The notes under the pieces were generated by a model. It saw only the letters and a list, made by a program, of their open reading frames with translations, did no database searches and had not been told where the DNA came from. Source: Candidatus Nomurabacteria bacterium (lineage in GTDB: Bacteria; Patescibacteriota; Minisyncoccia; Phycocordibacterales; UBA9973). Taken from it: a DNA stretch of 64,000 bases. The stretch lies in contig JAPLXQ010000011.1 in assembly GCA_026395995.1 (NCBI GenBank), positions 4,210-68,209 of the forward strand, read 5' to 3'. Below, piece after piece: positions 4,786 to 55,929 of the stretch (position 1 is the stretch's first letter; every line of letters starts with the position of its first letter). A program made the translations under genes and the position numbers.

Positions 4786-4787
4786 AG

Positions 4788-6135: not shown

Positions 6136-6191
6136 GGCAGGTTTTTTATTTGCAAAATAAAGAGAAATATTAACGAAACATAATTATCCAC

Positions 6192-6211: not shown

Positions 6212-6234
6212 GATGAATATAATATAATTAACAT

Positions 6235-6594
6235 ATGGTTATGAATAAGAAAAAGAAATACAAAGGTGTCTCTGTAAATTTATTCGGGTTACCTGATGTA
6301 GATCTTTATGAAAATAAGAAGATTGTAAAAAGAATTTATCTCGATTCTTTTGCTACTGATTTTAAAGAGAATGCACCGAAGAATTTAATTCTTATGTATG
6401 ATATTCCAGATAACATGAAAAAGCATCGAGATTGGTTTCGTCGTCAGTTAAAAAGTTTTGGTTTTATAATGGTTCAAAAGAGTGTCTGGGTTGGCCCATC
6501 ACCATTACCAAAAGACTTTTTGGAATATTTGAAAGAAATTAAAATAGGGGACAAGTTTAAAACTTTTAAATTAGCTAAAGCTTATAAATTCTAA
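6235..6594 (+). CDS. Cas2-fold (Cas2/VapD-like) protein, orphan
   Basis: 'LILMYDIPDNMKKHRDWFRRQLKSFGFIMVQKSVWVG...IKIGDKFKTFKL' aligns with the Cas2 beta1-alpha1 core (LVxYDV...KRR..V.K....G.RVQ.SVF...DSvRiY). About 48 aa N-terminal extension. No cas1 or CRISPR array in the window. Confidence 0.45.
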   Translation: MVMNKKKKYKGVSVNLFGLPDVDLYENKKIVKRIYLDSFATDFKENAPKNLILMYDIPDNMKKHRDWFRRQLKSFGFIMVQKSVWVGPSPLPKDFLEYLKEIKIGDKFKTFKLAKAYKF

Positions 6595-6616
6595 TTAATT
6601 ATTACTGATATCTTCA

Positions 6617-6636
6617 ATCTACGCTATAGCGTAGAT
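6617..6636. repeat. 20 bp perfect palindrome ATCTACGCTATAGCGTAGAT (copy 2)
   Basis: Identical to 6192-6211; sits between the Cas2-like stop and the promoter of the next ORF. Confidence 0.9.
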
Positions 6637-6712
6637 GAAATTTTGCTGTTTGACTTGTCTTCGTATATTTTGTATTGTTTGGGTAGATATAATAATTCTT
6701 AAAAAAATTAAG

Positions 6713-7240
6713 ATGAAAAAGAATTTTAAGCCTATAAACTTAACTGACAAAGGTCCAATCTTTGATTTAGATGGTCATATGCCGACAGAAGAAAATTTTG
6801 CCCATGTTCTTTTAGAACTTTTTTCTAAAAAAGTATTACCCAAAACCAGAAGAAAGATCACTGTACTTGTTTCTGGAATTAAATATCACAAACTTAGAGC
6901 TGGGCAATGGGATCGTGAACCTTTCCGTTATGAAGAAGAAAAAACTTACACTTTTGGTTTTCTTTGTAGAAAATGGAGAGATGATTCTGGTGGAAAAGAT
7001 TTTGATCCTGAGGAATTTAAAAGAGAGTCTGAGATTCATTTTAAAATATTAGAAAAACAAGGAGATAAAAAATCAGCTTGGACTCCATATGTTTTTCATA
7101 AACAATATGAAAATGCTATTAAAGCTGAAAATAAATATCAGCAAGAGCTTAAAAATGCCCGAGAACCTGAAACGATTAAAAAAATAATAAAGAAAAGAGA
7201 AAGTGAATATTCTAGTTCTCAATTATACGTTGGAGGATAG
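6713..7240 (+). CDS. hypothetical protein
   Basis: ORF start taken at MKKNFKP; preceded by a TTGACT-N17-TATTGTTTGGGTA promoter module duplicated at 5598-5640. Confidence 0.4.
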   Translation: MKKNFKPINLTDKGPIFDLDGHMPTEENFAHVLLELFSKKVLPKTRRKITVLVSGIKYHKLRAGQWDREPFRYEEEKTYTFGFLCRKWRDDSGGKDFDPEEFKRESEIHFKILEKQGDKKSAWTPYVFHKQYENAIKAENKYQQELKNAREPETIKKIIKKRESEYSSSQLYVGG

Positions 7241-7367
7241 TGAATAGGTTCTAAAATTAAACTGCATGTAAATGCAGTTTTTATTTGCAAAATTGAGGAA
7301 AATGTTTTATATTAAAGGTATTAGGGCTTTGGCCTTTTTTTATTAATTATTAACAATAAACATATAT

Positions 7368-10345: not shown

Positions 10346-10441
10346 AAATTAAAACCCCGATCACTCGGGGATTTTTTATTGACAAAATTCAGAAAAACTA
10401 TAGTATTCTACTTAGAATAAATAGTACTAAAAAAATAAATT

Positions 10442-10981
10442 ATGAACAAACCAGTTAGTGGCTTTAATCTTGATGCAATGCTTCAAGAAGGATTGAAAAA
10501 AGATAAACACATAGTACTTCCATTGAATTTGAACTACAAAGAGATATCTGAGGGTATTCGTCAGTTTAATATTGGTGATGAAAAAAGGCTATTTGCTTTG
10601 AATAAAAGTATCATTACTAAAACAAAAGATTTGGTATTGGCTTACCGGATGAATTTAGCTCTTTATCTAGAGCATGGTGATGATGGGATTAATGCATATG
10701 AAAAAACGATTGATTACATAAAAGAAGTGGCTCCTAATGTTCCCGTGTTGTCTGTTATGGATTTAGCTGGAAGTGATATAAAAGAAGGTATTTCAATTCA
10801 GCAAATCATTAAAGACGATTTAAAGAACGAATGTAAAACTTTTGTAATTAATGCCCCGGATGAGATAGTTTTTATTCAAAAGGTAGAAGACTTCGCCTTG
10901 GTAATCAGAAAAAAATTGGAAAAACTAAATGATAAAATTATGGAAACTAAAAAGCAGGTTTTGGGATCGATGATTTCATAA
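10442..10981 (+). CDS. hypothetical protein
   Basis: 179 aa ORF followed by a terminator hairpin (agcgggact..gtcccgctttt). Confidence 0.45.
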   Translation: MNKPVSGFNLDAMLQEGLKKDKHIVLPLNLNYKEISEGIRQFNIGDEKRLFALNKSIITKTKDLVLAYRMNLALYLEHGDDGINAYEKTIDYIKEVAPNVPVLSVMDLAGSDIKEGISIQQIIKDDLKNECKTFVINAPDEIVFIQKVEDFALVIRKKLEKLNDKIMETKKQVLGSMIS

Positions 10982-11019
10982 AATAAAAAAAGCGGGACTT
11001 ATTGTCCCGCTTTTACTAT

Positions 11020-12024
11020 TTATTTATATAAATTTTCTTTGTCCCCGAATAATTCCCAAGCTTTTCTTCTGACACTTCCAATAGCCCATGGTTTCAAGAA
11101 TTCAATCGAGTCCAGAGAAATACTATTAGCCCCAGCATGATGTAATGCCTCGACATCATTTTTATTGAGCGGTCCTCCACTATTGATATGTTTATGAAAA
11201 CCAGCATCACGTAAACCTTTGATGTATGTTAAAATTAACGGTAAAATTATTTTACCTGAAAGTCCTCCCAAATCAAGAATATGTAAACTCTTTTCTATTA
11301 GAGGGGAACCATCTGGATATAATTTTTTCCAATTAATTTCATTTGGTAAATTACCAAATTTAACCATACTTGAGATGGTAATAGCGTAGCAATTTGAATG
11401 CTTTTCAAATTGTATGACATTTTCAATCGGCATTTCTACTGAAATTTTTACAATAATTGGAATCCCTTTTTCTACTAAAGGTGTACACATATCTAGTATC
11501 TTTAACATTGTTTGTAGTTCTCTTGATTTATACTCAGTAAAATCAAGTTGTAATCCAATTTGGGCTTTAAAATCATTCTTTGATTTTAATAGCATTGTAA
11601 CGAATTCATCAAATTCCGATAATCTTTTTTCTTCAGTATTTATACTAGAAATAAAGGATATTTGAAAAGGATCAGTCCTCTCATGTAGCTGATAAGAAGA
11701 CAGGACAGTATTTGCTCCTGGACCATCCGGATTCAGGTCTTTTAATACACATTGATTTTTTCTATCTATGTGTATATTTTTCCTGAAAAATTTTTTTGGC
11801 ATCAAATCGTCTTTTAGTTTGATATTACTTTTATGTGCTTCCAATGTCGTTGTTTTAGAAACAAAAGTTAAGCCATCGAAATTAATACCGAGTTTGTCTA
11901 AAATTTTATGATATGGCCAACCTTGACCATAAAAATTTAATAGTCCTGCCTCACCCCAAATAACTTCAAAAGGTACGCCATGTATATTCACTTTTCGGTG
12001 AAAATCTTTTATTCTTTTTTTCAT
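11020..12024 (-). CDS. dihydroorotate dehydrogenase-like TIM-barrel protein (PyrD family, divergent)
   Basis: 'IWGEAGLLNFYGQG' and C-terminal 'LGGLSGKIILPL' resemble the DHODH substrate and FMN-phosphate loops. Confidence 0.45.
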   Translation of the reverse strand: MKKRIKDFHRKVNIHGVPFEVIWGEAGLLNFYGQGWPYHKILDKLGINFDGLTFVSKTTTLEAHKSNIKLKDDLMPKKFFRKNIHIDRKNQCVLKDLNPDGPGANTVLSSYQLHERTDPFQISFISSINTEEKRLSEFDEFVTMLLKSKNDFKAQIGLQLDFTEYKSRELQTMLKILDMCTPLVEKGIPIIVKISVEMPIENVIQFEKHSNCYAITISSMVKFGNLPNEINWKKLYPDGSPLIEKSLHILDLGGLSGKIILPLILTYIKGLRDAGFHKHINSGGPLNKNDVEALHHAGANSISLDSIEFLKPWAIGSVRRKAWELFGDKENLYK

Positions 12025-12140
12025 ATTTTTTTTACAATTTACAATTTATATTTTTTCTACCAGTACCTTAACACATTTATGCATGTTTGACAAATTTCCT
12101 CTTTTGACAAAGAGGTTTTTTGTAGATAGACTAAAGAAAA

Positions 12141-13076
12141 TTGAAACTTAAAAAGAAAAAGATTATGAATGTTACAGGACTTAAAATAGGCGGGTCTAAT
12201 TTAAAAGACCCAGAATCAGTAAAAAATATTGTAAATATATTAAAAGAGAGAAGTGCAGATAGGCCTTATTTTGTAGTTGTTTCTGCTATGTATGGAATGA
12301 CCAGACTTTTGGAAAAAATTCATAATACAAATATTGTAAGAATTAAAACTGGAAAAAAGATTGAAATGGTTCAACATTACAATGAATTTATCGGTTTTCA
12401 TGAGAACATGGTAAATGTTTTATTTGAAGGTAAAAACAACAAAGCAAGCTTTAGGAAATTGATTGAAGATTTTGATGAGACTATTATGACGGCAGGCTTC
12501 TTTTCAGAAGCTTTAGTAAAAGCAGAGATTTTATCTTTCGGAGAACGATTCTCTTCTTTAATTTTGAGTAATTATTTGAATTCTCAAAATATTAACAATA
12601 CTTTGATTAGAGCTTTTGATTTTATGGTTACGAATAATGATTTTGACAATTCAATCGTTTGTTTTGAACAAACTAATCAGAACATAGTAAATCAGTTTAC
12701 AAATTTAATGCTTAAAAATAGTGTGGTAATAACTGAAGGATTTATAGGAAGGACCAAAATCAACGGCAATCCATTTTACACTAATCCTGGTGGTTGGAAT
12801 GGATCAGATTATACCGCCAAAATAATAGCTGACGCCTTGGATGCTAAGAAACTTGTCTTTTATAAAGATACTTTTCTAATGGACATAAATCCAAATGCAC
12901 CAGGTGGCGAAAAGGCCAAAAAGATTGAAACTATTTCTTATGAGAATTTAAGGATGAAGATTTTGAATAAATCTGCTGGAACGATTTTACACGAAAAGGT
13001 TCTTTTAGGTAAAAGAATTCCAATAGAAATTCGCTCCTCTTTAAGTCCAAAAGAAGAGGGAACTAAGGTTTTTTAG
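12141..13076 (+). CDS. amino-acid kinase family protein (aspartokinase-like)
   Basis: 'LKIGGSNL...FVVVSAMYGMTRLL' matches the aspartokinase/carbamate kinase N-terminal fold. Confidence 0.5.
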   Translation: MKLKKKKIMNVTGLKIGGSNLKDPESVKNIVNILKERSADRPYFVVVSAMYGMTRLLEKIHNTNIVRIKTGKKIEMVQHYNEFIGFHENMVNVLFEGKNNKASFRKLIEDFDETIMTAGFFSEALVKAEILSFGERFSSLILSNYLNSQNINNTLIRAFDFMVTNNDFDNSIVCFEQTNQNIVNQFTNLMLKNSVVITEGFIGRTKINGNPFYTNPGGWNGSDYTAKIIADALDAKKLVFYKDTFLMDINPNAPGGEKAKKIETISYENLRMKILNKSAGTILHEKVLLGKRIPIEIRSSLSPKEEGTKVF

Positions 13077-13181
13077 ATAGTATTTTTGCCCAGCTTCGCA
13101 ATGCGAAACTGGGCATTTTTTTTGACATATTTATATAAACATGTTACTTTTAAATTAAACAAACCAAAATTTATTTGAAAA

Positions 13182-14555
13182 ATGAATATAAAGATTACTG
13201 AAGAAAAAAAGACATTCATTCGAATGTTGTTATATTTAATGGTTCCCAAAAAAGTGATTGCAAAAATGCTTGATGTGAATGAAGTTACTATTGGAAAACA
13301 TTCAAAGCTAACAAAGGCTGAGATGAATGATATGGGACCTCAACCAGAAGGACAGGAATTGAGACTTGAAGTATTCAAAATGTATGTTTGGAGTCAAACA
13401 GATATTTTAGAAATGAGTATGGTGTTTGGAGTTTCTATAGCAGAAATTGAATCAATACAAAAAGCAATTTTTGATTATTTGAAAATGCAACGCTGTGTTT
13501 CATATTGTGAAGGTATTATCACTTCAGTTTTTCTGTATCAGAAAATTCAATTTGAATCGACTATATCGGTCGAAGAAAAAAAGCTGGTTGAAAAACTATT
13601 TGAACATCAAACATATGAATCTATATATTTGAAAGAAAAAAAACCAGGTAAAAAACTTTTCTTTGATTGTTGTATGCGGATACACAAGGAGCAAGAGTTA
13701 TTGATGCCAACTAAGTATAATATTTATCGTCCGGAAGAGTGTTTGACAAAAGTAATAGATTCATTTGTGAATGAAGAACGGAGTAAAGTAGGAGTATACA
13801 TCTCAAAAAGATTTGTTGATTTTATTAAATCTTTTTTTGCTACTTTAAGTAAAAAGGAACAAGCAAGTTTGTATAGTCTTGCGGAGTTGCCTGAGTTTGT
13901 AGAGGCATTTACTGAATACAAAAATTTAAAACCGAATGCTATTCAATCAAAACGTAAAACAGCATTGATACTATTACGCGGTAGAATAAAGCATTATTTA
14001 AAATTGGGAGAAACTATTATTCCAGAAGGAAAAAAACATTTAGATGACATTTTGCATCACCTAGAACTTGTTCAGAAAAAAGAGTCGGAATTACTTAACC
14101 TGAAAAAAGACTTTGAAAAATTTCAACTTACAGCTATAAGGTTGGCTAAGTTCTCAGCAGAGAATATGCCTATTGAAAAAGTAGATGATACAATTGTCGC
14201 TTCTATTCAAAAAGTAGATCCTGAGCTTTTAAAATTGATAAAAACTATAGAGCCAGTTCAACTTGTCCCGGTGGGTGTGGAAGTAATACAAAGTGAGCAA
14301 ATGAAGTTTTATCTGACAAATATAATGGATATGGATTTATCAGTTAGGTTATATACCTGTTTATCATATGCTGAAATAGAGTATGGTTGGCAAATATTAA
14401 CCATTTCTAAACATGATTTCCTTAAGTTCAGAAACTTTGGTAAAAAATCTATGATTGAATTAGAAGAATTAATTCATAATAAAAAACTTGTTTTTAATTC
14501 TATTGATCCATCACTTCAAAGGTATTTGGAAGATAAGATAATAAAAAAGAAATAA
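13182..14555 (+). CDS. hypothetical protein with C-terminal RNA polymerase alpha-CTD-like (HhH) domain
   Basis: C-terminus 'DLSVRLYTCLSYAEIEYGWQILTISKHDFLKFRNFGKKSMIELEEL' matches the alphaCTD consensus (LSVRxxNCLK..I..GDL...TE.ELLK..N.GKKSL.EI). The N-terminus is not alpha-NTD-like. Confidence 0.45.
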   Translation: MNIKITEEKKTFIRMLLYLMVPKKVIAKMLDVNEVTIGKHSKLTKAEMNDMGPQPEGQELRLEVFKMYVWSQTDILEMSMVFGVSIAEIESIQKAIFDYLKMQRCVSYCEGIITSVFLYQKIQFESTISVEEKKLVEKLFEHQTYESIYLKEKKPGKKLFFDCCMRIHKEQELLMPTKYNIYRPEECLTKVIDSFVNEERSKVGVYISKRFVDFIKSFFATLSKKEQASLYSLAELPEFVEAFTEYKNLKPNAIQSKRKTALILLRGRIKHYLKLGETIIPEGKKHLDDILHHLELVQKKESELLNLKKDFEKFQLTAIRLAKFSAENMPIEKVDDTIVASIQKVDPELLKLIKTIEPVQLVPVGVEVIQSEQMKFYLTNIMDMDLSVRLYTCLSYAEIEYGWQILTISKHDFLKFRNFGKKSMIELEELIHNKKLVFNSIDPSLQRYLEDKIIKKK

Positions 14556-14650
14556 TGGTTAGGATTCGCCCCGCGCTTGAAAAGCGCGGGGCTTTTATGT
14601 TGTATTAACCCTCTCCTTAACAAGGAGAGGGCAGGGTGAGGTGAATCCAT

Positions 14651-14682
14651 TTGACTTTATTTTTCAATCTGCTAGTATAGGA
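14651..14682 (+). promoter_or_regulatory. promoter TTGACT-N17-TAGTAT with conserved TCTGCTAGTATAGG box (upstream of tuf)
   Basis: The same TCTGCTAGTATAGG box recurs at 27429-27442 (upstream of rpsN) and 39410-39423 (upstream of ndk). Confidence 0.5.
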
Positions 14683-14810
14683 ACATAACTGCACTTTTGG
14701 CAGTTTTTGTTTGCAATTTTTATAAAATTTATTAATTTAATTAAAGTTAGTGGTCTAAATTTAGCAACTTCTCGTATGTTAAGTTTTAACTAGTAACTAA
14801 AAATAAGTAT

Positions 14811-16007
14811 ATGGCAACAGAAGAATTTAAAAGAGACAAGCCACACGTAAACGTTGGTACAATCGGTCACGTTGACCACGGAAAGACTACTTTAACAGCA
14901 GCTATCTTGAACGTTCTTAATTTGAACGGTAAAACTGTTAAAATGAAGGGTGTTGGAGATATCGACAATGCTCCTGAAGAAAAAGCTCGTGGAATCACCA
15001 TTAACATTTCTCACAATGAGTACTCTACAGATGCTCGTCACTATGCTCACATTGATGCCCCAGGACACGCCGACTACATCAAAAACATGATCACAGGTGC
15101 TGCTCAAATGGACGGTGCTATCCTTGTCGTAGCTGCTACTGATGGTGCTATGCCACAAACACGTGAACACGTTCTTCTTGCAAAACAAGTTGGTGTTCCA
15201 AAGATTATCGTTTTCTTAAACAAATGTGACATGGTTGATGACAAAGACATGATTGACATGGTTGAAGAAGAAATCCGTGAATTGCTTACAAAACAAGGTT
15301 TTGATGGTGCAAACGCTCCTGTCATCCGTGGATCAGCTCTAAAAGGACTTGAAGCTACAGATGCTACAGACCCTTGGGCAATGAAGATCATGGATCTTGC
15401 AAACGCTCTTGATACATATATCCCAGTTCCAGAACGAGATACAGCAAAACCTTTCCTAATGGCTATTGAAGATATCTTCTCTATCGAAGGACGTGGAACA
15501 GTTGTAACTGGAAAAATCGAAAGAGGAATAGTAAAAGTAGGTGAAGACGTTGAAATTGTTGGTATTAAAGCTACACAAAAATCAACAGTCACTGGTATTG
15601 AAATGTTCAACAAGAACCTTCAAGAAGGTATGGCTGGAGACAACGCTGGTATCTTGCTCCGTGGATTAAAGAAAGATGATATTACTCGTGGACAAGTTCT
15701 TGCAAAACCAGGAACAGTGACTCCTCATGATAACTTTACTTGTGAAGTTTACATCTTGAAAAAAGAAGAAGGTGGACGTCATACTCCATTCTTCAAAGGT
15801 TACAAGCCACAATTCTACATCCGTACTACAGACGTTACAGGAGAAGTTGAATTAGCAGAAGGAGTAGAAATGGTTATGCCTGGAGATACAGCAAAATTCA
15901 CAGTGAAATTGGTTTCACCAGTCGCACTTGAAGATCAACAAAGATTTGCTATCCGTGAAGGAGGAAAGACTGTCGGTGCCGGAGTCGTTACAAAAATTAT
16001 TGCTTAA
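14811..16007 (+). CDS. tuf: elongation factor Tu
   Basis: [18 protein letters not shown] and NKCD motifs; 398 aa. Confidence 0.98.
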
Positions 16008-16018
16008 CCTTTAAATTT

Positions 16019-16417
16019 ATGGCTGAAGAAGAAACAACAACTAAAAAAGTAAAAAAAGTTACCACACCAAAAGTGAGTAAAGCTTCTTCTAAAGTTAAAG
16101 AAGAAGGAAAAGAAGTAGTATTACGTATCCGAGTTCGTGCTTACGAAAGTAAGATTCTTGATACTTCTGTAAAACAAATTATTGATACAGCTATGCGTTA
16201 TGATGCAAAGATAGTCGGTCCTGTACCACTACCTACTGAAATCAAAAAATATACAGTCAACCGTGCCTCTTTCGTTTACAAAAACACACGAGAACAATTC
16301 GAAATGAGAGTACACAAGAGAGTGATTGATATTTTAAACCCAAATGCAAAGACCATCGAAGCTTTGACAAACCTTTCACTTCCATCCGGAGTTGAAATAG
16401 ATGTAAAAATGATTTAG
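16019..16417 (+). CDS. rpsJ: 30S ribosomal protein S10 (with Lys-rich N-terminal extension)
   Basis: S10 core 'LRIRVRAYESKILD...' preceded by an about 35 aa K-rich extension. Confidence 0.9.
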   Translation: MAEEETTTKKVKKVTTPKVSKASSKVKEEGKEVVLRIRVRAYESKILDTSVKQIIDTAMRYDAKIVGPVPLPTEIKKYTVNRASFVYKNTREQFEMRVHKRVIDILNPNAKTIEALTNLSLPSGVEIDVKMI

Positions 16418-16429
16418 CCCTAAAATTTT

Positions 16430-17044
16430 ATGAAATTTATACTTGGAACAAAAGTTAATATGACTGAATACTTCTCCGAAAACGGAGTGGTAATTCCAGT
16501 AACAATAATCTCAGCTGGACCTGTAAAAGTGGTAACCATCAAAGATAAGACTAAAGATGGCTACAATGCTGTACAAGTCGGTTTTGGAGAACAAAAAGAA
16601 AGTCGTGTTAATAAAGCTCAAAAAGGACAAATGAAAGGGGACTTTTTCAAAGTTATGAAAGAGTTTCGCTTGAAAAATGATGACAAATTTGAAGGAAATG
16701 TAGGAGACATGCTAGATGTATCTAGTTTTGAAATTGGGGATATGCTCCAAGTCTCAGGAACTTCAAAAGGTAAAGGTTTCCAAGGTGTTGTAAAACGCCA
16801 TGGCTTCAAAGGAGGTCCAAGATCTCACGGTCAGAAACACTCTGAACGTGAACCAGGATCTATCGGAGGAGGTCTACGAACACACGTGCCAAAAGGAATG
16901 AGAATGGCCGGCCGTATGGGATCTGACAGAATAACTTACAAAAATTTGAAAGTTGTTTTCGTTGATAAAGAAAACAATGTAATGCTTATCAAAGGAGCAA
17001 TCCCAGGAAAGCGTGGAAGTTTAGTAGAAATTACAGCTCGATAA
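16430..17044 (+). CDS. rplC: 50S ribosomal protein L3
   Basis: Operon position and L3 motifs (GTSKGKGFQGVVKRHGF). Confidence 0.95.
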   Translation: MKFILGTKVNMTEYFSENGVVIPVTIISAGPVKVVTIKDKTKDGYNAVQVGFGEQKESRVNKAQKGQMKGDFFKVMKEFRLKNDDKFEGNVGDMLDVSSFEIGDMLQVSGTSKGKGFQGVVKRHGFKGGPRSHGQKHSEREPGSIGGGLRTHVPKGMRMAGRMGSDRITYKNLKVVFVDKENNVMLIKGAIPGKRGSLVEITAR

Positions 17045-17054
17045 TAATAAATTT

Positions 17055-17723
17055 ATGTTAAAAGCAACAATATACAATCAAAAAGGAGCCGAAGCTGGAA
17101 GTATCGAACTACCAGAGAAAGTTTTTGGTATGAAATGGAAGACAGACTTGGTTCACCAAGTAGTCGAAAGTATTCGTGGCAACAAACGTGCTGGTACTGC
17201 TGATACCAAAGGCCGTGGAGAAGTTCGTGGAGGAGGAAAGAAACCTTGGAAACAAAAAGGTACTGGTCAAGCTCGTCACGGTTCTACACGTAGTCCTATT
17301 TGGGTTGGTGGAGGTGTGACTCATGGTCCTCTTGCTGAAAAGAATTACAAGAAAAAAATCAACAAGAAAATGAGAGTAGGAGCATTGTATGCTGTTCTTT
17401 CAAAGAAATTAAAAGATGGAGAAATAATCTTTGTCGATTCGTTGGTAATGAAAGACATCAAGACAAAGTCTGCTGTAGATGTAATGGCAAATCTTGCTAA
17501 AGCTACAGGATTTAAAATGATTGCTTCTTCAAAGAAACCAAAAGTATTAGTCGCTATTGCTGCTAAAGATGAAAAGATACAAAAGAGTTTCAGAAATATT
17601 CCTTCTCTTGAATTAGCAATGATAAACAATATCAATCCAATGCAAGTGCTTAATTATAAATATCTTTTGATTGAAAACCCAGAATCTGCAGTGAAGTTTT
17701 TATTAACTCGCTCAGGAAAATAA
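17055..17723 (+). CDS. rplD: 50S ribosomal protein L4
   Basis: Operon position and L4 motif (KPWKQKGTGQARHGS). Confidence 0.95.
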   Translation: MLKATIYNQKGAEAGSIELPEKVFGMKWKTDLVHQVVESIRGNKRAGTADTKGRGEVRGGGKKPWKQKGTGQARHGSTRSPIWVGGGVTHGPLAEKNYKKKINKKMRVGALYAVLSKKLKDGEIIFVDSLVMKDIKTKSAVDVMANLAKATGFKMIASSKKPKVLVAIAAKDEKIQKSFRNIPSLELAMINNINPMQVLNYKYLLIENPESAVKFLLTRSGK

Positions 17724-17727
17724 TTTT

Positions 17728-18003
17728 ATGGCAGACATTAAAACAATTAAAAAACCTAGAATCACAGAAAAAGTAGCCCTTCTCGCCGAGAAGAATATTT
17801 ATACTTTCGAAGTTTCAGCAAATGCTACAAAGAATGAAATAAGAAAGGATATCGAAGCTATTTATAAAATCAAACCAGTCAAAGTAAATATCGTTCACAT
17901 TCCAAAAAAGACAGTGATAATCCGTGGAAAGAAAGGTGTTAAAAATGGTGGTAAGAAAGCAATGGTATATTTAAAAAAAGGTGATAAGATCGATTTTGCA
18001 TAG
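17728..18003 (+). CDS. rplW: 50S ribosomal protein L23
   Basis: 91 aa, L23-like sequence, operon position. Confidence 0.9.
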   Translation: MADIKTIKKPRITEKVALLAEKNIYTFEVSANATKNEIRKDIEAIYKIKPVKVNIVHIPKKTVIIRGKKGVKNGGKKAMVYLKKGDKIDFA

Positions 18004-18035
18004 TATAAAAGTTCACTACAAGTAATAAAAATATT

Positions 18036-18875
18036 ATGAAGACATATAAACCAACAAGTAAATCAAGAAGACAAATGACAAACATTGACTACCGCAATGT
18101 TTTGACTAAAACTACACCTGAGAAATCTTTGACTCACGGCTTCAAAAGAGCTGTAGGAAGAAATAATCTCGGACGTATTACTACTCGTCATAAAGGAGCA
18201 GGTCATAAGAGACTTTTCCGTGATGTCGATTTCTTATATAACAAAAAAGATATTCCTGCAAAAATCACAAGTATCGAATATGATCCAAACCGTTCTTCAT
18301 TTATCGGTCTTGCTGTTTACAAAGATGGAGAAAAGAGATATGTCATCTTACCTCAATCAGTAAAGCCAGGAGATATGTTTGTCGTGTCTGAAAAAGCTGA
18401 ATTAAAACCAGGAAACAGACTCATGTTGAAAAACATTCCAGTCGGAACATTCGTTTACAATGTGGAAATGAAATCAGGATCTGGAGCCAAGATTGCTCGT
18501 TCTGCTGGAATTTTCGCACAAGTTGTAGCTAATGCTGACGGATACACAAATGTCAAAATGCCATCATCTGAAGTTCGTAAAGTTTCAGAACTCGCTTGGG
18601 CTTGTGTCGGTTCTGTCTCAAATGAAGAACATCACCTCGAGAACTACGGTAAGGCTGGACGTTCACGATGGAAGGGTATTAGACCAACTGTCCGCGGTAC
18701 TGCAATGAACGCTGTAGACCACCCATACGGAGGTGGAGAAGGCCGACAAGGACGTGGAACAAAGAGACCTAAAACATTGTGGGGTAAGGTTACAGGAGGA
18801 CGCAAGACAAGAACTCCAAAGAAATACTCAAATGTCTTCATCGTAAGTCGTAGAAAAACAGGTAAAAATAAGTAA
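18036..18875 (+). CDS. rplB: 50S ribosomal protein L2
   Basis: 279 aa with canonical L2 motifs (GGGEGRQGRG...). Confidence 0.97.
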   Translation: MKTYKPTSKSRRQMTNIDYRNVLTKTTPEKSLTHGFKRAVGRNNLGRITTRHKGAGHKRLFRDVDFLYNKKDIPAKITSIEYDPNRSSFIGLAVYKDGEKRYVILPQSVKPGDMFVVSEKAELKPGNRLMLKNIPVGTFVYNVEMKSGSGAKIARSAGIFAQVVANADGYTNVKMPSSEVRKVSELAWACVGSVSNEEHHLENYGKAGRSRWKGIRPTVRGTAMNAVDHPYGGGEGRQGRGTKRPKTLWGKVTGGRKTRTPKKYSNVFIVSRRKTGKNK

Positions 18876-18960
18876 TTTTGTAAAGTCCTAGAAAGACTGC
18901 CTGCCCGCCATCGCTACGCTCAGGCGTTAGCGGGCGGGGAAAGAACAAATAATTTTAAAG

Positions 18961-18990
18961 CAAAAAATCCCCATTATGGGGATTTTTTGC
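18961..18990 (+). terminator. rho-independent terminator (aaaaaatccccattatggggattttttg)
   Basis: Near-identical to the terminator after rpsG at 4757-4785; precedes an inserted island. Confidence 0.6.
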
Positions 18991-19023
18991 TTTTTGATCC
19001 TTATTTTACAAGGCTTTTAAACT

Positions 19024-19052
19024 TGACTTTTCAAACTATATATGCTATACTT
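19024..19052 (+). promoter_or_regulatory. promoter TTGACTTTT-N-TGCTATACTT
   Basis: -35 TTGACT and extended -10 TGCTATACT; family members at 4788, 20177 and 21042. Confidence 0.55.
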
Positions 19053-19057
19053 TATAT

Positions 19058-19128
19058 AGTTTAAGGTTCGTTGAAAAAAGTTTTGATTGGTGACAAGAAG
19101 TCCTTTTGGGATTTGTTGTCACCAATAA
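19058..19128 (+). promoter_or_regulatory. conserved about 70 nt 5' leader element with hairpin (ttggtgacaa...ttgtcaccaa), copy 1
   Basis: Identical 70 nt at 21077-21147, both directly downstream of family promoters. The six-frame track translates both as 'MKKVLIGDKKSFWDLLSPIK', which is probably spurious. Confidence 0.5.
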
Positions 19129-19139
19129 AAACAATAGAT

Positions 19140-19502
19140 ATGACAAATTCAGCAGTTACAACAGTAGTTTCGTTTAATTTTTTTGATTTTTTAAAATCAA
19201 TTTCTAGATGGTATAAAAACCGTATAGGCAATAAAAAAGGTTTTGGTTGTTGCCCTAATTGTGGTGATAGCTGGAATTGGAAAAGTAGTATCGGTGTTGA
19301 GTATGAAAAACACTATTTTTTTTTTTTTTTTTTTATTTCACCCTCAGTAAGTATTTGCAGCGAATGTTTAACTTCCGCAAAATTTGATTACCAAAGAATT
19401 GAAAAACATTTGGAGTCAGGTACTTGGGAAAAAGAAAACATTGCGAAAGCAATAACCGCCTTAAAAGAATTTGAAAAAAACAAAAAATTAACTAAAAACT
19501 AA
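19140..19502 (+). CDS. hypothetical Cys-rich small protein containing a T20 homopolymer tract
   Basis: CPNCG ... CSECL zinc-ribbon-like halves separated by the FFFFFF translation of a 20 nt poly-T run (19315-19334). Coding status is uncertain. Confidence 0.3.
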   Translation: MTNSAVTTVVSFNFFDFLKSISRWYKNRIGNKKGFGCCPNCGDSWNWKSSIGVEYEKHYFFFFFFISPSVSICSECLTSAKFDYQRIEKHLESGTWEKENIAKAITALKEFEKNKKLTKN

Positions 19503-19508
19503 ATAGAA

Positions 19509-20054
19509 ATGAAAAAAATTCTAAATTTTATTTTAAAAATGATTGCTGGTCTTACTACTGGATGGATTATTGGATCAACTATTTTAGGGGTTATGCACTA
19601 CAATGCAGAAGCTTCCTTGAAAGAAAAAACAGATTCCTTAAATTATTCTGAAGCTATTACTTTAAGTAGTTTCTCAAAAATTATAGAGAATCTTGATTTA
19701 TCAGCAAAGATAGATGATTCTTTAGGTCTTCTAAATTTAAGTCCAGCAGCACTTAAGGCTGAAGAAAAGAGAGACAAAAGTCATGATGATGTCCTTTTAA
19801 GTAAGCGTAAGGCTTGCATTGACACATGTGTTTTTTATCAAAAATTACTTGAAAAACAGATCCCGAGTACTGAATTTTTAAAAACAGAGTATCAGGCTAA
19901 ATTAAAAAGTGCTGATTGGAAGTTCGCGGCAGTGTCTCACTATTCTTTGTGGCTTTATGATAAAGTTGCAAAACTTTGGCTGCCTGAAAGAGTAAAAGTT
20001 CTAACTCCAATTGAGATAATGTCAGACAATAGTGTAAAAACCACTAAAGTTTAG
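19509..20054 (+). CDS. membrane-anchored hypothetical protein
   Basis: N-terminal TM helix (ILKMIAGLTTGWIIGSTILGV); no known motifs. Confidence 0.45.
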   Translation: MKKILNFILKMIAGLTTGWIIGSTILGVMHYNAEASLKEKTDSLNYSEAITLSSFSKIIENLDLSAKIDDSLGLLNLSPAALKAEEKRDKSHDDVLLSKRKACIDTCVFYQKLLEKQIPSTEFLKTEYQAKLKSADWKFAAVSHYSLWLYDKVAKLWLPERVKVLTPIEIMSDNSVKTTKV

Positions 20055-20176
20055 TATTATTCTTGTTTAGTTATATACCCCGTTCGTTGATTCGAATGGG
20101 GTATTTTATTTATATATAGTTATCTATTTACCCAATCGCCCTAATATCTATTACTTTTAACTCGAGAGCGACGTGG

Positions 20177-20205
20177 TTGACTTTTATATATTGATATGCT
20201 ATACT
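20177..20205 (+). promoter_or_regulatory. promoter TTGACTTTT-N-TGCTATACTT
   Basis: Family consensus upstream of the lipoprotein gene. Confidence 0.55.
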
Positions 20206-20256
20206 TTTTACATAGTTAATTGATAAAATAAATATAAACCAAAAATCTAAAAGCAA

Positions 20257-20940
20257 ATGAAAAAAATGTTTTCTATTACCGTTGCGATGTTATTCTTCGC
20301 TGTATTATTTAATTCTTGTGGTGAAAGTCAGTCTGGCCAAAGAGCAAAAGCTCGAAGAGCTAAAGCTGACAGTATTGCTACCGCACAACAACAACCGGTT
20401 ATTACCCCGGAGCCTGAAAAACCGGAACCTGCACCTGTGCCGGAAAAAGATGAATTTGTCTTCACCCCGACTGCAATTGCAGCCACTCCTGTGCAGGAAA
20501 ATCTAAAAGATAAATGTGGGGAGGGTCAATATTCTTGCCATACATTTTCTGTTGACTTTGTGTTAACAGATTCAACTGGAATGAAGTACTTTTTTTCGAT
20601 ATCTGAAAATGCCTCAAACGAAGTATCTAAAGAAGAAGTAACTTCTGGTGGAGAAGGAATAGGTTCTGATTATGATCAGGAGCATATGAAACTTGCTAAA
20701 AAAACTTATGCCGAAATGACAAGTCCAAATTTTGATTTTAAAAATTTCAAATTTGTTTATTACAAAAATTCTGGGATGTTGACGATTACTAAAATCATAC
20801 CAAATTCCGGTAAGAAAATTGGCAAAGTTGAAATTCTGGATGGTAAAGAAGAAAAACTTTATTCTGCCTCTTGCAGGGTAACACCAGCAGAGCAGAAGCT
20901 GTACAATCTTCAAAGCTATTCAGCTCTCGCTTCGAAGTAA
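20257..20940 (+). CDS. lipoprotein (hypothetical)
   Basis: Signal peptide with lipobox LFNSC; Pro/Glu-rich linker. Confidence 0.55.
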   Translation: MKKMFSITVAMLFFAVLFNSCGESQSGQRAKARRAKADSIATAQQQPVITPEPEKPEPAPVPEKDEFVFTPTAIAATPVQENLKDKCGEGQYSCHTFSVDFVLTDSTGMKYFFSISENASNEVSKEEVTSGGEGIGSDYDQEHMKLAKKTYAEMTSPNFDFKNFKFVYYKNSGMLTITKIIPNSGKKIGKVEILDGKEEKLYSASCRVTPAEQKLYNLQSYSALASK

Positions 20941-21041
20941 ATTTTTTAGTTTAAGTACCAGTCACCATTCTCGAGATTCGAGGATGGTGATTTTTTATTA
21001 AATACAACCCCTAAATCCCCTTATCAGGGGACTTTAAATGC

Positions 21042-21070
21042 TTGACTTTTGACTTTGGTTGTGCTATACT
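21042..21070 (+). promoter_or_regulatory. promoter TTGACTTTT-N-TGCTATACTT
   Basis: Family consensus; precedes leader copy 2. Confidence 0.55.
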
Positions 21071-21076
21071 TAGGAT

Positions 21077-21147
21077 AGTTTAAGGTTCGTTGAAAAAAGT
21101 TTTGATTGGTGACAAGAAGTCCTTTTGGGATTTGTTGTCACCAATTA
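21077..21147 (+). promoter_or_regulatory. conserved about 70 nt 5' leader element, copy 2
   Basis: Identical to 19058-19128. Confidence 0.5.
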
Positions 21148-21161
21148 AATTTAATATATAT

Positions 21162-22007
21162 ATGAAGAAAGTAGTTATGTTTGTGCTTTTGAGCACTATG
21201 AGTGTCGTTGGCCTTAGCCAAATTAAAGACATTAAAGTAAATGATCAAATTACCGTAGACCGTGTGTACGCAGGGATCATGTCTGGGAGTTATTTCAGCG
21301 TTGATAGCTTGAATATTGTCAGCTTCGTGGACTTACGTCTAGGAGCAATGGCGACTTACAAGCCAGCTAAATGGATATCAGTAAAAAGTTTTTGCGTGTA
21401 CAACATGCAAACAAAGACCGAACCATTTGGTATTATCCATTTTTGGGTAAAACTAAATCCGACTGAAAAATTTAGTCTGGAGGCTGGAAATATGGCGACA
21501 TTGCCGACAGAACAACGACCTCATCCTGTATCGGGAGACGGGCAATTTGAAACATTTGCAGAAGCTCAAATAGTCGGCATGGCATTAGGAGCAAAGATGA
21601 AGTACCAATTCAATCCAGATTTTAAAATCGGTGCTGGTATCGCTGATCGTAAGGGTCCAGAATATTCTGGTATGTTTAATTATAAAAAAATTACATTATC
21701 AGGCTGGTATACAGATAAGACACAAAAAGCTGGATCAGCTTTGACGCTTGATTTTGAAAGAATTTATTCTGTTTTAGTTTGGCGACAAGACCAGACTATT
21801 TCAAATATTTTCTGTTTTAAAATACCAAAGCATGAAACTCTTAGCTTGTATGCTGACGATGGCTACAATTTGGTCACCGGCGACCTGGTGAGAGGGGAAT
21901 ATGGAATCTTGAAAAATTTCAGCTCTACTCATTTCAGCGGATTGCTAGGTTTTGGTTATGTCACTGAGACGCGAAGTGTGGCAGGATATCTATTCCTGCA
22001 TTTATAG
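21162..22007 (+). CDS. secreted hypothetical protein (beta-rich)
   Basis: Start at MKKVVMFVLLSTMSVVGLSQ signal peptide; aromatic C-terminal residue, as in outer-membrane-like proteins. Confidence 0.5.
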   Translation: MKKVVMFVLLSTMSVVGLSQIKDIKVNDQITVDRVYAGIMSGSYFSVDSLNIVSFVDLRLGAMATYKPAKWISVKSFCVYNMQTKTEPFGIIHFWVKLNPTEKFSLEAGNMATLPTEQRPHPVSGDGQFETFAEAQIVGMALGAKMKYQFNPDFKIGAGIADRKGPEYSGMFNYKKITLSGWYTDKTQKAGSALTLDFERIYSVLVWRQDQTISNIFCFKIPKHETLSLYADDGYNLVTGDLVRGEYGILKNFSSTHFSGLLGFGYVTETRSVAGYLFLHL

Positions 22008-22070
22008 ACGTGAGCCTTAGGTTGTAATATACAACCTAAGGCTTTTTATTTTTTATAGTATAATAATAAT

Positions 22071-22463
22071 ATGGAAAAAATGTCAGAGAAAAAAAGATTT
22101 TCAATTGTGTCACGAGTAAAGAGCGCAAATCATGCTATGCGTGGTTTTATTATTTTATTAAAAACAGGACACAATTTTTGGATGCATATTTTTTTTACAG
22201 CACTGGCTGTATACCTAGGTTATATTTTAAATATTTCAGAAGCAGAATGGATTTTTATTGTTATCACTGTCGGCATAGTATTACTGGCTGAAGCTTTTAA
22301 TACAGCAATAGAAATAGATATAGATCTCACTAGCCCAAATTATCATCCCTATGCGAGAGATACAAAAGATGTCGCAGCAGCCTCTGTTATTATCTCTGTT
22401 TTAATCGCTTGCATTGTCGGTCTAATAATATTTCTACCAAAGATTTTTGCACTTTATTTTTAA
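22071..22463 (+). CDS. dgkA: diacylglycerol kinase / undecaprenol kinase family (DgkA)
   Basis: 130 aa; three TM helices; 'AEAFNTAIE' and 'KDVAAASV' match DgkA conserved motifs. Confidence 0.65.
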   Translation: MEKMSEKKRFSIVSRVKSANHAMRGFIILLKTGHNFWMHIFFTALAVYLGYILNISEAEWIFIVITVGIVLLAEAFNTAIEIDIDLTSPNYHPYARDTKDVAAASVIISVLIACIVGLIIFLPKIFALYF

Positions 22464-22598
22464 AATTTCCCCCTCTCTAAAATTTTAATTTTGGAGAGGG
22501 GGCTAGGGGGTGAGGTAGGATTTGCATTTTTTTTGCTTTGTGCTAATATGACTTGTAGCTCACTTCGAGCTTTTTATTTACTCGTTTATATATATTAC

Positions 22599-22943
22599 AT
22601 GACAAGATCACTCAAAAAAGGCGCATACGTGGATGAAGGACTGCTAAAGAAAATAGCAGGTAAAAGTCCGTTACAAACACCTATGATCAAGACTTGGAAA
22701 AGAGCCTCACAAATCTCACCAGAAATGGTCGGGTTTACTTTTGGTGTTCATAACGGTAAGACTCACGTAGAAGTCATCGTTTCTGAAGATATGGTAGGTC
22801 ACAGACTAGGAGAATTTTCACCTACAAAGAAATTTAGTAAACATGGAGGTAAAATGCAGAAAGAATTAGAACAAAAGAAGAAAGAGGCTGAAATAACACA
22901 AGCTAAGTCCGCTAGTGCCGCTTCTGATGCTAAAAAGAAATAA
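22599..22943 (+). CDS. rpsS: 30S ribosomal protein S19 (with Lys-rich C-terminal extension)
   Basis: MTRSLKKGAYVDEGLLKKI...GHRLGEFSPT canonical S19; start taken at the internal ATG. Confidence 0.93.
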   Translation: MTRSLKKGAYVDEGLLKKIAGKSPLQTPMIKTWKRASQISPEMVGFTFGVHNGKTHVEVIVSEDMVGHRLGEFSPTKKFSKHGGKMQKELEQKKKEAEITQAKSASAASDAKKK

Positions 22944-26381: not shown

Positions 26382-26506
26382 AAAACTTTAAACCTAGAAA
26401 AACACCCTATAATAGGGTGTTTTTCTTTTATCCATTGTTGGGTTGACTTTTTAAAAGATATATGATATCATCCAATTAGATAAACGTTTTTTAAATTTTA
26501 TGAGCG

Positions 26507-26917
26507 ATGGATATTATTATTAGAATTATATGTTTTTTTATTGGTCTTGTTTTGGATATATTGGCCATTGTTTCTTATTTTCTTCCTTGGTTCACAGGAA
26601 TAGCCATAGGCTATGGATTAATAAGTCATAATGGGTTGTATATAGCTATTGGATTTGCATTAATAGTCGTTAACGCGACACTTGTATATCTTTATAATAA
26701 AAAAAGCAAACAACTTCGTTGGATAAGCTACATTTCAATATTTTCTTCTTTATTTCTTTCTTATGATTTCCTTTATTTTTTCTGGGAAGTCAACAAGGGT
26801 TTACCTGTAAAAAAAGAAGAATTCGAAATGTTCTATAACTCTGTGCAATATTTTTGCATAATAGGAAGCATAATAGCATTCACTCAACATTTTTTCAAAA
26901 TAGAAACACCCGAATAA
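26507..26917 (+). CDS. membrane hypothetical protein inserted between rplE and rpsN
   Basis: Four predicted TM helices; flanked by near-identical terminator hairpins at 26403-26428 and 26903-26928. Confidence 0.4.
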   Translation: MDIIIRIICFFIGLVLDILAIVSYFLPWFTGIAIGYGLISHNGLYIAIGFALIVVNATLVYLYNKKSKQLRWISYISIFSSLFLSYDFLYFFWEVNKGLPVKKEEFEMFYNSVQYFCIIGSIIAFTQHFFKIETPE

Positions 26918-27024
26918 TGGGTGTTTTTTATTTGACTTCGTAGGGGTCTTAATATAATATACTGTGTAAGCTAGTTCTTTGTTCAATCAAAGGCAAAAAG
27001 AGTAATAATCTTAAATTAATTACG

Positions 27025-27315
27025 ATGATACAACTAACAAGTTTTGTATTTGCCGTAATTCATTTTACGGTTGTACCCTTATTTACAGAAAATTACTTTG
27101 CTCTCTCGAGAGTAAAGACTGAAGTTGCCACTACTCCATTCATACTGGAAGTAGAACAAGATATTTTGTTAGTTTTCTTTACGAAAAATAATGAAACTTT
27201 TTTTAAAGTAAAAAACAGTATTGTTGATAATTCACGTTCAGAAAGAAAGCTATTTAATCAGTTTTCTTATGAACACAGTATGATGTTATTATTTTATCCT
27301 ACTGGATTTACTTAG
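27025..27315 (+). CDS. hypothetical small protein
   Basis: ORF only; weak support. Confidence 0.25.
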   Translation: MIQLTSFVFAVIHFTVVPLFTENYFALSRVKTEVATTPFILEVEQDILLVFFTKNNETFFKVKNSIVDNSRSERKLFNQFSYEHSMMLLFYPTGFT

Positions 27316-27411
27316 CAATTTAGATACCGAATTGTAACCAGAAAAACATTTTTAAACTTAAAAGCATGCCCGATTCCGAGCATGCTTTTTTATTTTGTCC
27401 TAATCTATAAT

Positions 27412-27442
27412 TTGACTATTTAAACCCGTTCTGCTAGTATAG
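27412..27442 (+). promoter_or_regulatory. promoter TTGACT-N17-TAGTAT with TCTGCTAGTATAGG box (upstream of rpsN)
   Basis: Same box as at 14668-14681 and 39410-39423. Confidence 0.5.
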
Positions 27443-27579
27443 GATGCATAGGGAATAGGGCTTTGTTTAATCCACTTTTCTCCTTTATTTTCCGTCTTTT
27501 CCCCTGATAAGGGGAGCTAGAGGGGTTTTAAAGAAAACAAGTGTGATATTAACTAAGTAAAAATTCCTTCAATTATTAT

Positions 27580-55928: not shown

Positions 55929-55929
55929 C

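Follow-up and report, generated by a model that had tools for sequence, protein, structure and literature searches.

The S10 operon is broken between rplB and rpsS in the stretch of Candidatus Nomurabacteria DNA described here (64,000 nt of contig JAPLXQ010000011.1, hereafter the window). The two ribosomal-protein genes, which are adjacent and co-transcribed in the canonical operon, are separated by a gap of 3,723 nt (18876-22598) that contains terminators, a new promoter in front of rpsS, five open reading frames (ORFs), three further near-consensus promoters, and a duplicated 71-nt block. It is probable, with some room for doubt, that this islet represents the local filling of an S10-operon break shared across the lineage, as opposed to a one-off insertion, and that the duplicated block is a leader carrying a cis-acting mRNA hairpin module. 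The S10-spc block, which is regarded as the region of highest synteny in bacterial genomes, is a source of the concatenated markers by which genomes of the candidate phyla radiation (CPR) are placed and quality-checked. A class-wide break filled with foreign genes at rplB-rpsS, as well as at rplE-rpsZ, alters this expectation of synteny. The leader alone is of modest interest; the main interest lies in the hotspot, in hairpins found close to promoters, and in a porin-like protein encoded in the islet.

Interruption of rplB-rpsS Across Paceibacteria

An earlier note on this DNA set the split against a near-universal adjacency of rplB and rpsS; among relatives, however, the window genome is not peculiar in this respect. 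The rplB of the window shares 80-86% protein identity with genomes labelled Candidatus Nomurabacteria, Paceibacterota, or Patescibacteria. A total of 80 rplB loci from species-representative genomes were fetched and their tuf-to-rplE junctions measured, with rplB-rpsS measured in 62 Paceibacteria genomes. The gap sizes are as follows:

rplB-rpsS: median gap 882 nt; more than 300 nt in 44 of 62 genomes, more than 1 kb in 26 of 62
rpsJ-rplC: median gap 66 nt; more than 300 nt in 13 of 62, more than 1 kb in 8 of 62
rplE-rpsZ: median gap 249 nt; more than 300 nt in 20 of 41, more than 1 kb in 10 of 41
each of 12 other junctions: median gap below 100 nt, and below 90 nt for ten of them; more than 300 nt in 0-1 genomes per junction, more than 1 kb in 0-1

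At nine further loci, no rpsS was found within the full 8-kb flank, and gap size is highly variable even among the closest relatives (75 nt to over 8 kb). The cargo found in these gaps (89 ORFs of at least 80 aa, on both strands) is unrelated between genomes, is often of a housekeeping kind, and includes DUF3298 proteins (six), DgkA (five), histidine kinases, MazF and Doc toxins, and the metabolic genes purE, purC, pyrD, pyrH, pyrF, and proC. A single one of the 89 ORFs matches a transposase, and the 25 most frequent cargo families listed, out of about 50 matched, include no integrase. Unrelated cargo combined with a near absence of mobility genes points to a junction that is permissive for insertion and not to a mobile element. 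As the outcome that would count against its interpretation, the earlier note had named an insertion universally conserved in CPR genomes with no conservation of the leader. What was found, a lineage-wide split with unrelated cargo, comes close to this. A literature search returned no description of an rplB-rpsS split or of CPR porins, and absence from such a search is no proof of novelty.

Transfer hotspots between core genes are well-known from the pneumococcal cps locus (dexB-aliA) and the O-antigen locus (galF-gnd). Like these, the rplB-rpsS junction is a fixed site with conserved flanks, whose variable content would be swapped by homologous recombination, with no dedicated mobility genes. 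It differs from them in lying inside the S10 operon, which is normally inviolate, in extending over a whole CPR class, and in carrying small autonomous cassettes where cps and O-antigen loci carry one pathway. The rplB-rpsS gap thus offers a defined place in which to seek accessory genes in Paceibacteria.

Separate Transcription Units at rplB and rpsS

The structure of the shortest junctions suggests how the break is tolerated. Even where the gap measures just 70-170 nt, rplB is followed by a terminator, and both a promoter of the form TTGAC(A/T)-N17-TGnTAnnAT and a hairpin are present. This indicates that the two genes are transcribed as separate units, so that DNA can accumulate between them. 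Under this model, the tuf-rpsJ...rplB unit would stop at its terminators, while transcription of rpsS and the genes beyond it would restart from a separate promoter with its own 5' hairpin. The space between the two units would tolerate foreign DNA, with a content that differs per genome. In the window, the restart is represented by the following features:

rpsS promoter, 22521-22549, + strand: TTTGCA-17-TAATAT with an extended -10 TG; equivalents lie 5' of rpsS in 43 relatives
rpsS 5' hairpin, 22557-22576, + strand: AGCTC-ACTTC-GAGCT followed by TTTTT, about 7 nt after the -10 box
rpsS (S19), 22599-22943, + strand: Pfam Ribosomal_S19, E = 2e-30; opens the downstream ribosomal-protein unit

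The corresponding hairpins of relatives are short, GC-rich, and followed by a U-run, and they lie 6-13 nt past the -10 box and 6-38 nt before the ATG. A strict hairpin-plus-U pattern occurs in 47 of 62 rpsS upstream regions, compared to 2.4 +/- 1.5 (maximum 7) in dinucleotide shuffles, and a hairpin follows 38 of the 43 rpsS promoters defined by a regular expression. The stems are clade-specific with pairing kept (AGCUC/GAGCU, CCCGC/GCGGG, ACGCC/GGCGU, GACCC/GGGUU, and CGCGC/GCGCG). RNAalifold applied to a promoter-anchored MAFFT alignment of the rpsS upstream regions returned no pairs, the hairpins being misaligned in that alignment, and the rpsS 5' hairpin has no match in Rfam. The same design, a promoter followed by a hairpin and a U-run, is found at the tuf promoters of the window (14651-14705) and of relatives (about 3.5 kb 5' of rplB), and the tuf element AACTGCAC-TTTT-GGCAGTTTTT is conserved in Nomurabacteria. 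Across loci, a hairpin follows 88 of 256 promoter-like sites. Together with its presence at tuf, this indicates a general feature of these genomes that is not specific to rpsS.

The GC-rich hairpin with a U-run after a promoter that would be expected of an attenuator is present in the rpsS 5' hairpin and missing from the 71-nt leader. In E. coli, the leader of the S10 operon is the site of L4-mediated attenuation, and ribosomal-protein leaders also occur in Firmicutes (cf. PMC3616713). The rpsS hairpin is like these in that a conserved terminator-like element lies within a ribosomal-protein leader. Unlike the E. coli S10 leader, it precedes rpsS and not rpsJ, has a stem of 5-7 bp with no alternative structure, and is also found at tuf. 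An attenuator, a 5' stabilizer, and a U-rich ribosome landing site are all compatible with these observations. The terminator-like hairpins that follow the promoters of rpsS and tuf represent a simple, conserved, and so far undescribed expression feature in this group.

Cassettes of the Islet and Their Exchange Between Strains

The earlier note proposed that five genes part rplB from rpsS in the window, and this is confirmed by Pfam matches on both flanks (rplV is also Pfam-confirmed) and by the presence of the ORFs. Likewise, its description of the cargo as envelope or secreted-type proteins plus DgkA is supported, with each cassette having its own promoter and terminator. The layout is further backed by three independent assemblies (L001, L092, and L084). 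From left to right, the islet and its left flank comprise:

rplB (L2), 18036-18875, + strand: Pfam Ribosomal_L2_N/C, E = 1e-30 and 1e-49; closes the tuf-rpsJ-rplC-rplD-rplW-rplB unit
two terminator hairpins after rplB, 18900-18993, + strand: GC-rich hairpin 18900-18938 and bidirectional A6-TCCCC..GGGG-AT6 18957-18993
promoter P1, 19023-19052, + strand: TTGACT-17-TATACT, extended -10 TG
i1, 19140-19502, + strand: 120-aa ORF with CxxC...CxxC zinc-ribbon-like motifs; species-restricted, no Pfam match
i2, 19509-20054, + strand: 181 aa, N-terminal transmembrane anchor, without a family match
intrinsic terminator of the i1-i2 cassette, 20075-20104, + strand
promoter P2, 20177-20206, + strand: TTGACT-17-TATACT, extended -10 TG; unstructured 5' untranslated region (UTR)
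i3, 20257-20940, + strand: 227 aa, signal peptide ...LFNSC with Cys21; probably a lipoprotein, its lipobox being non-canonical
intrinsic terminator of the i3 cassette, 20960-20992, + strand
promoter P3, 21042-21071, + strand: TTGACT-17-TATACT, extended -10 TG; small hairpin upstream (21016-21031)
i4, 21162-22007, + strand: 281 aa, signal peptide; predicted 16-strand porin-like beta-barrel
intrinsic terminator of the i4 cassette, 22012-22044, + strand
dgkA, 22071-22463, + strand: PF01219, E = 1e-30; diacylglycerol/undecaprenol kinase family
GC-rich hairpin at the right islet edge, 22470-22515, + strand: CCCCCTCTC...GAGAGGGGG plus GGGTGAGG; member of a repeated intergenic hairpin family

The three predicted promoters have features of sigma-70 promoters of the extended -10 type, with 10 of 12 hexamer matches, a 17-nt spacer, and the TG. 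Three near-identical promoters had been described, and they are indeed present at 19023, 20177, and 21042, with a variable stretch of 11 nt and not 12. The further suggestion that they are cloned copies of each other is not upheld. They are 77-80% identical among themselves and 77-83% identical to promoters at 4788 and 42786, and their extended consensus is shared by relatives, where it matches the tuf and rpsS promoters, although strain comparison shows recombination within promoters. The sequence TTGACTTT occurs 13 times in the window, every time on the + strand, and exact TGCTATACT is confined within the window to the three island promoters. The island promoters are best read as the strong-promoter consensus of the lineage, doubling as a recombination substrate. 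The A6-TCCCC-loop-GGGG-AT6 terminator after rplB, at 18962-18988, does match the one in front of the str-operon island (after rpsG, 4756-4781), as had been noted, but a further copy at 39938 makes it a recurring terminator type and no unique island marker.

Strain comparison reveals how variable the islet is. L001 and L092 encode an rplB that is 100% identical to that of the window at the protein level, and their DNA is 97% identical through i2. Both keep i1, i2, i4, dgkA, and rpsS, while i3 is replaced by a stretch of about 3.3 kb whose products are 142, 74, 212, 149, 125, 106, and 156 aa long. The 106-aa protein of L001 is a lipoprotein in which the i3 signal peptide MKKMFSITVAMLFFA is attached to an unrelated mature part. 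Its promoter equals P3 of the window together with the hairpin upstream of P3 (with a few spacer substitutions), joined to an i3-type UTR. P3 and its upstream hairpin (21016-21031) are thus the crossover point seen between the strains, and the window arrangement corresponds to an L001-like one in which two promoter copies have recombined. Over 10373-22067, the window diverges from L001 in a mosaic pattern, with identity of 97.3% from tuf to i2, 92.7% in i4, and 88.6% and about 81% further upstream; pyrH of the two strains could not be aligned by blastn. This mosaic suggests frequent recombination between lineages. The cargo that differs between such near-identical strains consists of envelope and surface proteins, the gene class that would be expected to govern attachment of an epibiont to its host.

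These observations are consistent with a model in which the islet is built of self-contained promoter-gene-terminator envelope cassettes (the zinc-ribbon-like protein with a membrane ORF, an orphan lipoprotein, and the porin-like barrel). Strains would gain, lose, and swap these cassettes by homologous recombination, with crossovers in the near-identical promoters and, probably, with the conserved ribosomal-protein genes serving as homology arms. Competence genes are reportedly enriched in the phylum (PMC11665869). That the recombination mechanism is drawn from one strain pair weighs against the model.

An alternative possibility is that the islet is a mobile element, such as an integrative island, an integron-like array, or a transposon, with the hairpins or promoters as recombination sites. 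The islet is indeed cassette-like and strain-variable (window compared to L001 and L092), it has repeated modules at its cassette borders, and its hairpins recall attC sites. Nevertheless, this origin is very unlikely. The islet encodes no integrase or transposase, in keeping with the single transposase among the cargo of relatives, and it is accompanied by neither flanking direct repeats nor a tRNA. Its composition is normal (GC content of 0.29-0.42 compared to 0.30-0.45 outside), and each cassette has its own promoter and intrinsic terminator, unlike integron cassettes. Moreover, the breakpoints fall in promoters and in signal-peptide sequence and not in the leader hairpins.

The variable lipoprotein loci of Mycoplasma, vsp and vlp, offer a partial parallel. 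As in those loci, a promoter, a 5' UTR, and a signal peptide are shared while the mature domain differs (i3 compared to the 106-aa lipoprotein of L001). Unlike in those loci, each strain has one lipoprotein at the locus, and neither invertible elements nor phase switching driven by repeats were detected.

The Duplicated 71-nt Leader

Two of the cassettes, those of i1-i2 and i4, begin with the same sequence:

leader copy 1, 19056-19126, + strand: 71 nt; hairpin 19086-19126, extended stem 19080-19132
leader copy 2, 21075-21145, + strand: 71 nt, identical to copy 1; hairpin 21105-21145

An identical leader of about 70 nt with a hairpin had been reported for both cassettes, and this stands as an exact block of 71 nt, with coordinates that were one base off. 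The arms of the hairpin, TTGGTGACAA-N19-TTGTCACCAA, are located at 19087-19125 and 21106-21144; the hairpin is present twice in the window, while none is expected from shuffles. The leader folds with a minimum free energy of about -30 kcal/mol (z = -6.1 and -5.5), and its 3' 41 nt form a hairpin of about 22 bp that ends 13-16 nt 5' of the start codon. This hairpin is one near-perfect helix closed by a loop of 3-4 nt. Its 18 core pairs and 4-5 flanking pairs, with one G/G mismatch, provide the length of double-stranded RNA typical of RNase III substrates (about 20-22 bp), and its stability (-24 to -30 kcal/mol, z about -6) is that of stable 5' UTR stem-loops of the ompA/aprE type. The structure is also asymmetric between strands, since two G-U pairs in the sense RNA become A-C mismatches on the minus strand, and the sense hairpin (-24.3 kcal/mol) is accordingly stronger than its antisense counterpart (-16.9 kcal/mol).

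Identity between the two copies is sharply bounded. The copies are identical over all 71 nt, while the promoter spacers differ at 7 of 11 positions and the downstream UTRs cannot be aligned; the block opens close to where transcription is predicted to start and closes at the hairpin base. When the strains are compared, the i4 leader shows 1 change in 71 nt, as against 7.3% for the surrounding region (P = 0.03). The i1 leader of L001 shows a compensatory change of A-U to C-G, a wobble-preserving change of U-A to U-G, and an insertion in the loop, and in the i4 leader of L001 one pair is broken. Whereas the two copies in the window are identical, the paralogues in L001 differ at six sites, which is indicative of gene conversion. 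In total, the leader is known from one species, in which each genome has two copies and three different versions of the sequence occur. It has no match in Rfam at the gathering threshold, and at E <= 10 only sub-threshold matches to miRNA hairpins were obtained (19080-19132 and 21101-21149). No further copy was detected by BLAST or by a covariance model (R1) in 1.19 Mb of relatives, and the regions upstream of three i4 homologues lack the leader and are unrelated. In Joint Genome Institute (JGI) metagenomes, the two matches to TTGATTGGTGACNAGAAGTCC were chance ones located in coding DNA rich in GC, and the 5' part of the leader was not found in a scan of viral contigs.

A TTG in both window copies is in frame with the downstream gene. 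A coding role for the leader, as a TTG-initiated N-terminal extension or an upstream ORF, was rejected on the basis of the L001 sequences: the TTG is TTT in the i1 copy, which also has the 1-nt loop insertion, and the i4 ORF is called from the ATG only. The leader is thus non-coding.

The leader is most likely a cis-acting hairpin that affects mRNA stability, processing, or translation. In this scheme, a paralogous promoter-plus-5' UTR module would be common to the two cassettes, and the leader would constitute the first 71 nt of both mRNAs. The hairpin would act in cis as a 5' stabilizer of the ompA type or as an RNase III site, the common leader would give both cassettes the same expression behavior, and gene conversion would hold the two copies identical. 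There are precedents for such a function. Stem-loops in the 5' UTR stabilize mRNA in E. coli ompA and in the aprE and ermC leaders of B. subtilis, and hairpins processed by RNase III are found in the leaders of rnc, pnp, and phage T7. The leader described here shares with them a very stable 5' UTR hairpin, genes for abundant envelope proteins, and the lack of a ligand pocket or terminator, and at about 22 bp its hairpin is the same size as RNase III substrates. It differs from the ompA, aprE, and ermC leaders in that the hairpin lies about 30 nt from the predicted 5' end and occurs in one species.

Several observations weigh against a cis-acting role, and some of them lend support to its main rival, neutral duplication with conversion. 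According to this explanation, the leader is a functionless, hitch-hiking promoter-plus-UTR module that was duplicated and homogenized by gene conversion, and the hairpin is a relic of, for example, an old terminator. The leader is confined to one species, and gene conversion, which is evident here, could by itself explain the identity of the copies. The covariation is not significant, as 126 of 500 shuffles reach the observed value with three distinct sequences from one species. The i3 cassette is served by the similar promoter P2 with no structured leader, and the hairpin is thus not needed for expression from this type of promoter. In addition, the str-operon islet has a duplicated promoter-plus-UTR module of its own (5591-5662 and 6642-6713, 72% identical), which suggests that such duplications are common in this genome. 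Apart from this rival, the hairpin begins about 24-30 nt after a transcription start that is itself predicted from the -10 box, unlike classical stabilizers, which are 5'-terminal, and on the minus strand it is followed by T6 and resembles an intrinsic terminator. Neutral duplication is thus a serious possibility, though clearly the less probable one, as it does not readily account for a block whose edges match the predicted start and the hairpin end while the spacer and the distal UTR have diverged. The compensatory and wobble-preserving changes, the slower change of the leader relative to adjacent coding DNA, and the G-U pairs that favor the sense RNA argue against it as well.

The resemblance to a terminator leads to a second alternative, in which the hairpin is a reverse intrinsic terminator that insulates the strong promoter and rplB from antisense transcription within the cassette. 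Read on the minus strand, T6, complementary to the A6 tracts at 19074-19079 and 21093-21098, comes 0-2 nt after a stem of about 22-24 bp, and of the other long inverted repeats in the window the majority are terminators. This role is unlikely, since the minus-strand hairpin is weakened by its A-C mismatches, the islet has no minus-strand gene or strong minus-strand promoter that would call for insulation, and the 18 nt located 5' of the A-tract are equally conserved despite being superfluous for a terminator. Least probable of all, and hardly to be entertained, is the proposal of the earlier note, in which surface proteins are co-regulated by a signal-sensing leader RNA of the riboswitch-like or attenuator kind: the leader is strongly structured, shared by two unrelated cassettes, and placed between promoter and start codon, but no Rfam family was found beyond miRNA-hairpin noise, the fold is a single helix without a multi-helix pocket or conserved bulges, the lack of a sense-strand U-tract and an ATG left unpaired 13-16 nt downstream cause both the attenuator and the riboswitch models to fail, and no copy is conserved outside the species. 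A simpler cis-acting role in stability, processing, or translation is plausible, and it is the RNA-level function that we infer for the leader.

A Predicted Porin-Like Barrel in a Lineage Described as Monoderm

The protein encoded by i4 is confidently predicted to fold as an OmpF-like 16-strand barrel. The AlphaFold2 model, based on a 45-sequence alignment, has a predicted local distance difference test (pLDDT) score of 90.9 and a predicted template modeling (pTM) score of 0.83, and consists of 16 long strands with a long internal loop that contains short helices. In a Foldseek search of the PDB, the top 50 matches are all outer-membrane beta-barrel channels, and nearly all of these are 16-strand general porins, including OmpC, OmpF, OmpU, the Rhodobacter porin, and OmpM1 (E down to 5e-8, probability 1.0, template modeling score 0.54-0.63). 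The strands are amphipathic, with mean hydropathy values of +1.55 and -0.55 for their two faces. At the sequence level, no link to porins was found in Pfam, NCBIfam, or a PDB profile search, and the C-terminus (...GYLFLHL) does not display the aromatic beta-signal. Like OmpF, OmpC, the Rhodobacter porin, and OmpM1, i4 thus combines a predicted 16-strand barrel, a long internal loop with short helices, a signal peptide, and amphipathic strands. It is unlike the general porins of diderm bacteria in having no sequence match to them, in its ...FLHL C-terminus, and in belonging to producers described as monoderm.

An exhaustive profile search of 1.84 billion proteins recovered 303 cluster representatives of the i4 family, and the named members belong only to Absconditabacterales, Absconditicoccaceae, the "Patescibacteria group," and the Nomurabacteria genome of the window. 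The nearest relative is 57-58% identical, and no i4 was found at the other Paceibacteria loci examined. It is therefore likely that i4 was acquired horizontally. Gln20, at the predicted cleavage site of the i4 signal peptide, is invariant across the family.

Patescibacteria have been described as monoderm (PMC11665869), and electron microscopy of Vampirococcus, an Absconditabacterium, shows a single membrane (PMC8080830). A porin-like barrel is unexpected in a CPR group described in this way. A tentative explanation, which we regard as doubtful, is that i4 belongs to a small family of OmpF-like pores, named only from CPR bacteria, that are made by single-membrane cells, exported, and put to work outside the membrane of the producer. 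The modeled barrel might then insert into the outer membrane of a Gram-negative host to gain nutrients or into an unrecognized outer layer, and the hotspot might trade host-interaction genes from Absconditabacteria-like donors to Nomurabacteria. If confirmed, a barrel in a monoderm lineage would provide a testable route to how CPR cells take up host material.

Other Genes of the Islet

Two of the remaining cargo genes appear to be highly restricted. For i1 and i3, no homologue was found beyond their own species among 5.8 billion protein clusters, and i3 is an orphan, the sole sequence of its kind in that set. The NCBI entries for i3 and i4, listed under a Candidatus Nomurabacteria genome, are NT068_03540 and NT068_03545. 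Exact look-ups of the rpsS and i4 protein sequences returned no records. Inside i1, a T19 homopolymer (19316-19334) lies between the two CxxC motifs, and the sister strain has TTTTTTCCCTGGTTGTTTT at this site plus 12 extra nt just downstream. It could mean that i1 is decaying, that the tract is prone to slippage, or that the assembly is at fault.

The identity of dgkA is well-supported by Pfam, with a score of 105.8 bits against a cutoff of 22.3 and coverage of domain positions 2-102 out of 102. The gene is also found within the rplB-rpsS gap of five relatives (L024, L025, L028, L032, and L033), and it is located directly 5' of rpsS in the window and in four of these (L024, L025, L028, and L033). 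It is probably an older resident of the gap, and the variable cassettes would have entered between it and rplB. A TATAAT (22059-22064) lies 6 nt 5' of the dgkA ATG, and from this spacing the dgkA mRNA is possibly leaderless.

Other Features of the Window

Two other ribosomal junctions of the window are also occupied. The rplE-rpsZ (S14) islet (26382-27579) comprises two promoter-ORF-terminator cassettes, with a 136-aa membrane ORF (26507-26917) and a 96-aa ORF (27025-27315), and a new promoter (27412-27440). The rpsG-fusA islet (4739-7367) holds four ORFs in addition to the duplicated promoter-plus-UTR module described above. Here, a Cas2-like/PaaX_M ORF (6235-6594) is situated between identical 20-bp perfect palindromes, ATCTACGCTATAGCGTAGAT (6192-6211 and 6617-6636). 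Between pyrH and tuf, a 457-aa ORF (13182-14555) has the alpha-CTD domain of RNA polymerase at its C-terminus and is not present at this site in L001.

The hairpin at the right edge of the rplB-rpsS islet belongs to a GC-rich family, CCCTCTCC...GGAGAGGG, often located beside CCTCACCC/GGGTGAGG, that is found in intergenic spacers of this AT-rich genome (14604-14641, 22470-22515, 25431-25463, 28717-28749, 39970-40008, 51874-51924, 9523-9606, and 39290-39373). Some copies are within the spc ribosomal-protein cluster, and the family may represent elements resembling repetitive extragenic palindromic (REP) sequences or terminators. An identical 29-nt terminator hairpin occurs twice (42734-42762 and 45499-45527), with a third copy (86%) at 33248, and a 108-nt direct repeat (82%) is present at 43555-43662 and 43956-44063, at a spacing of 401 nt; both are additional cases of regulatory or sequence modules being re-used. 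Finally, the window contains a tRNA-Ile with the unusual anticodon UAU (55855-55929) and a transfer-messenger RNA (tmRNA) gene on the minus strand (51432-51835).

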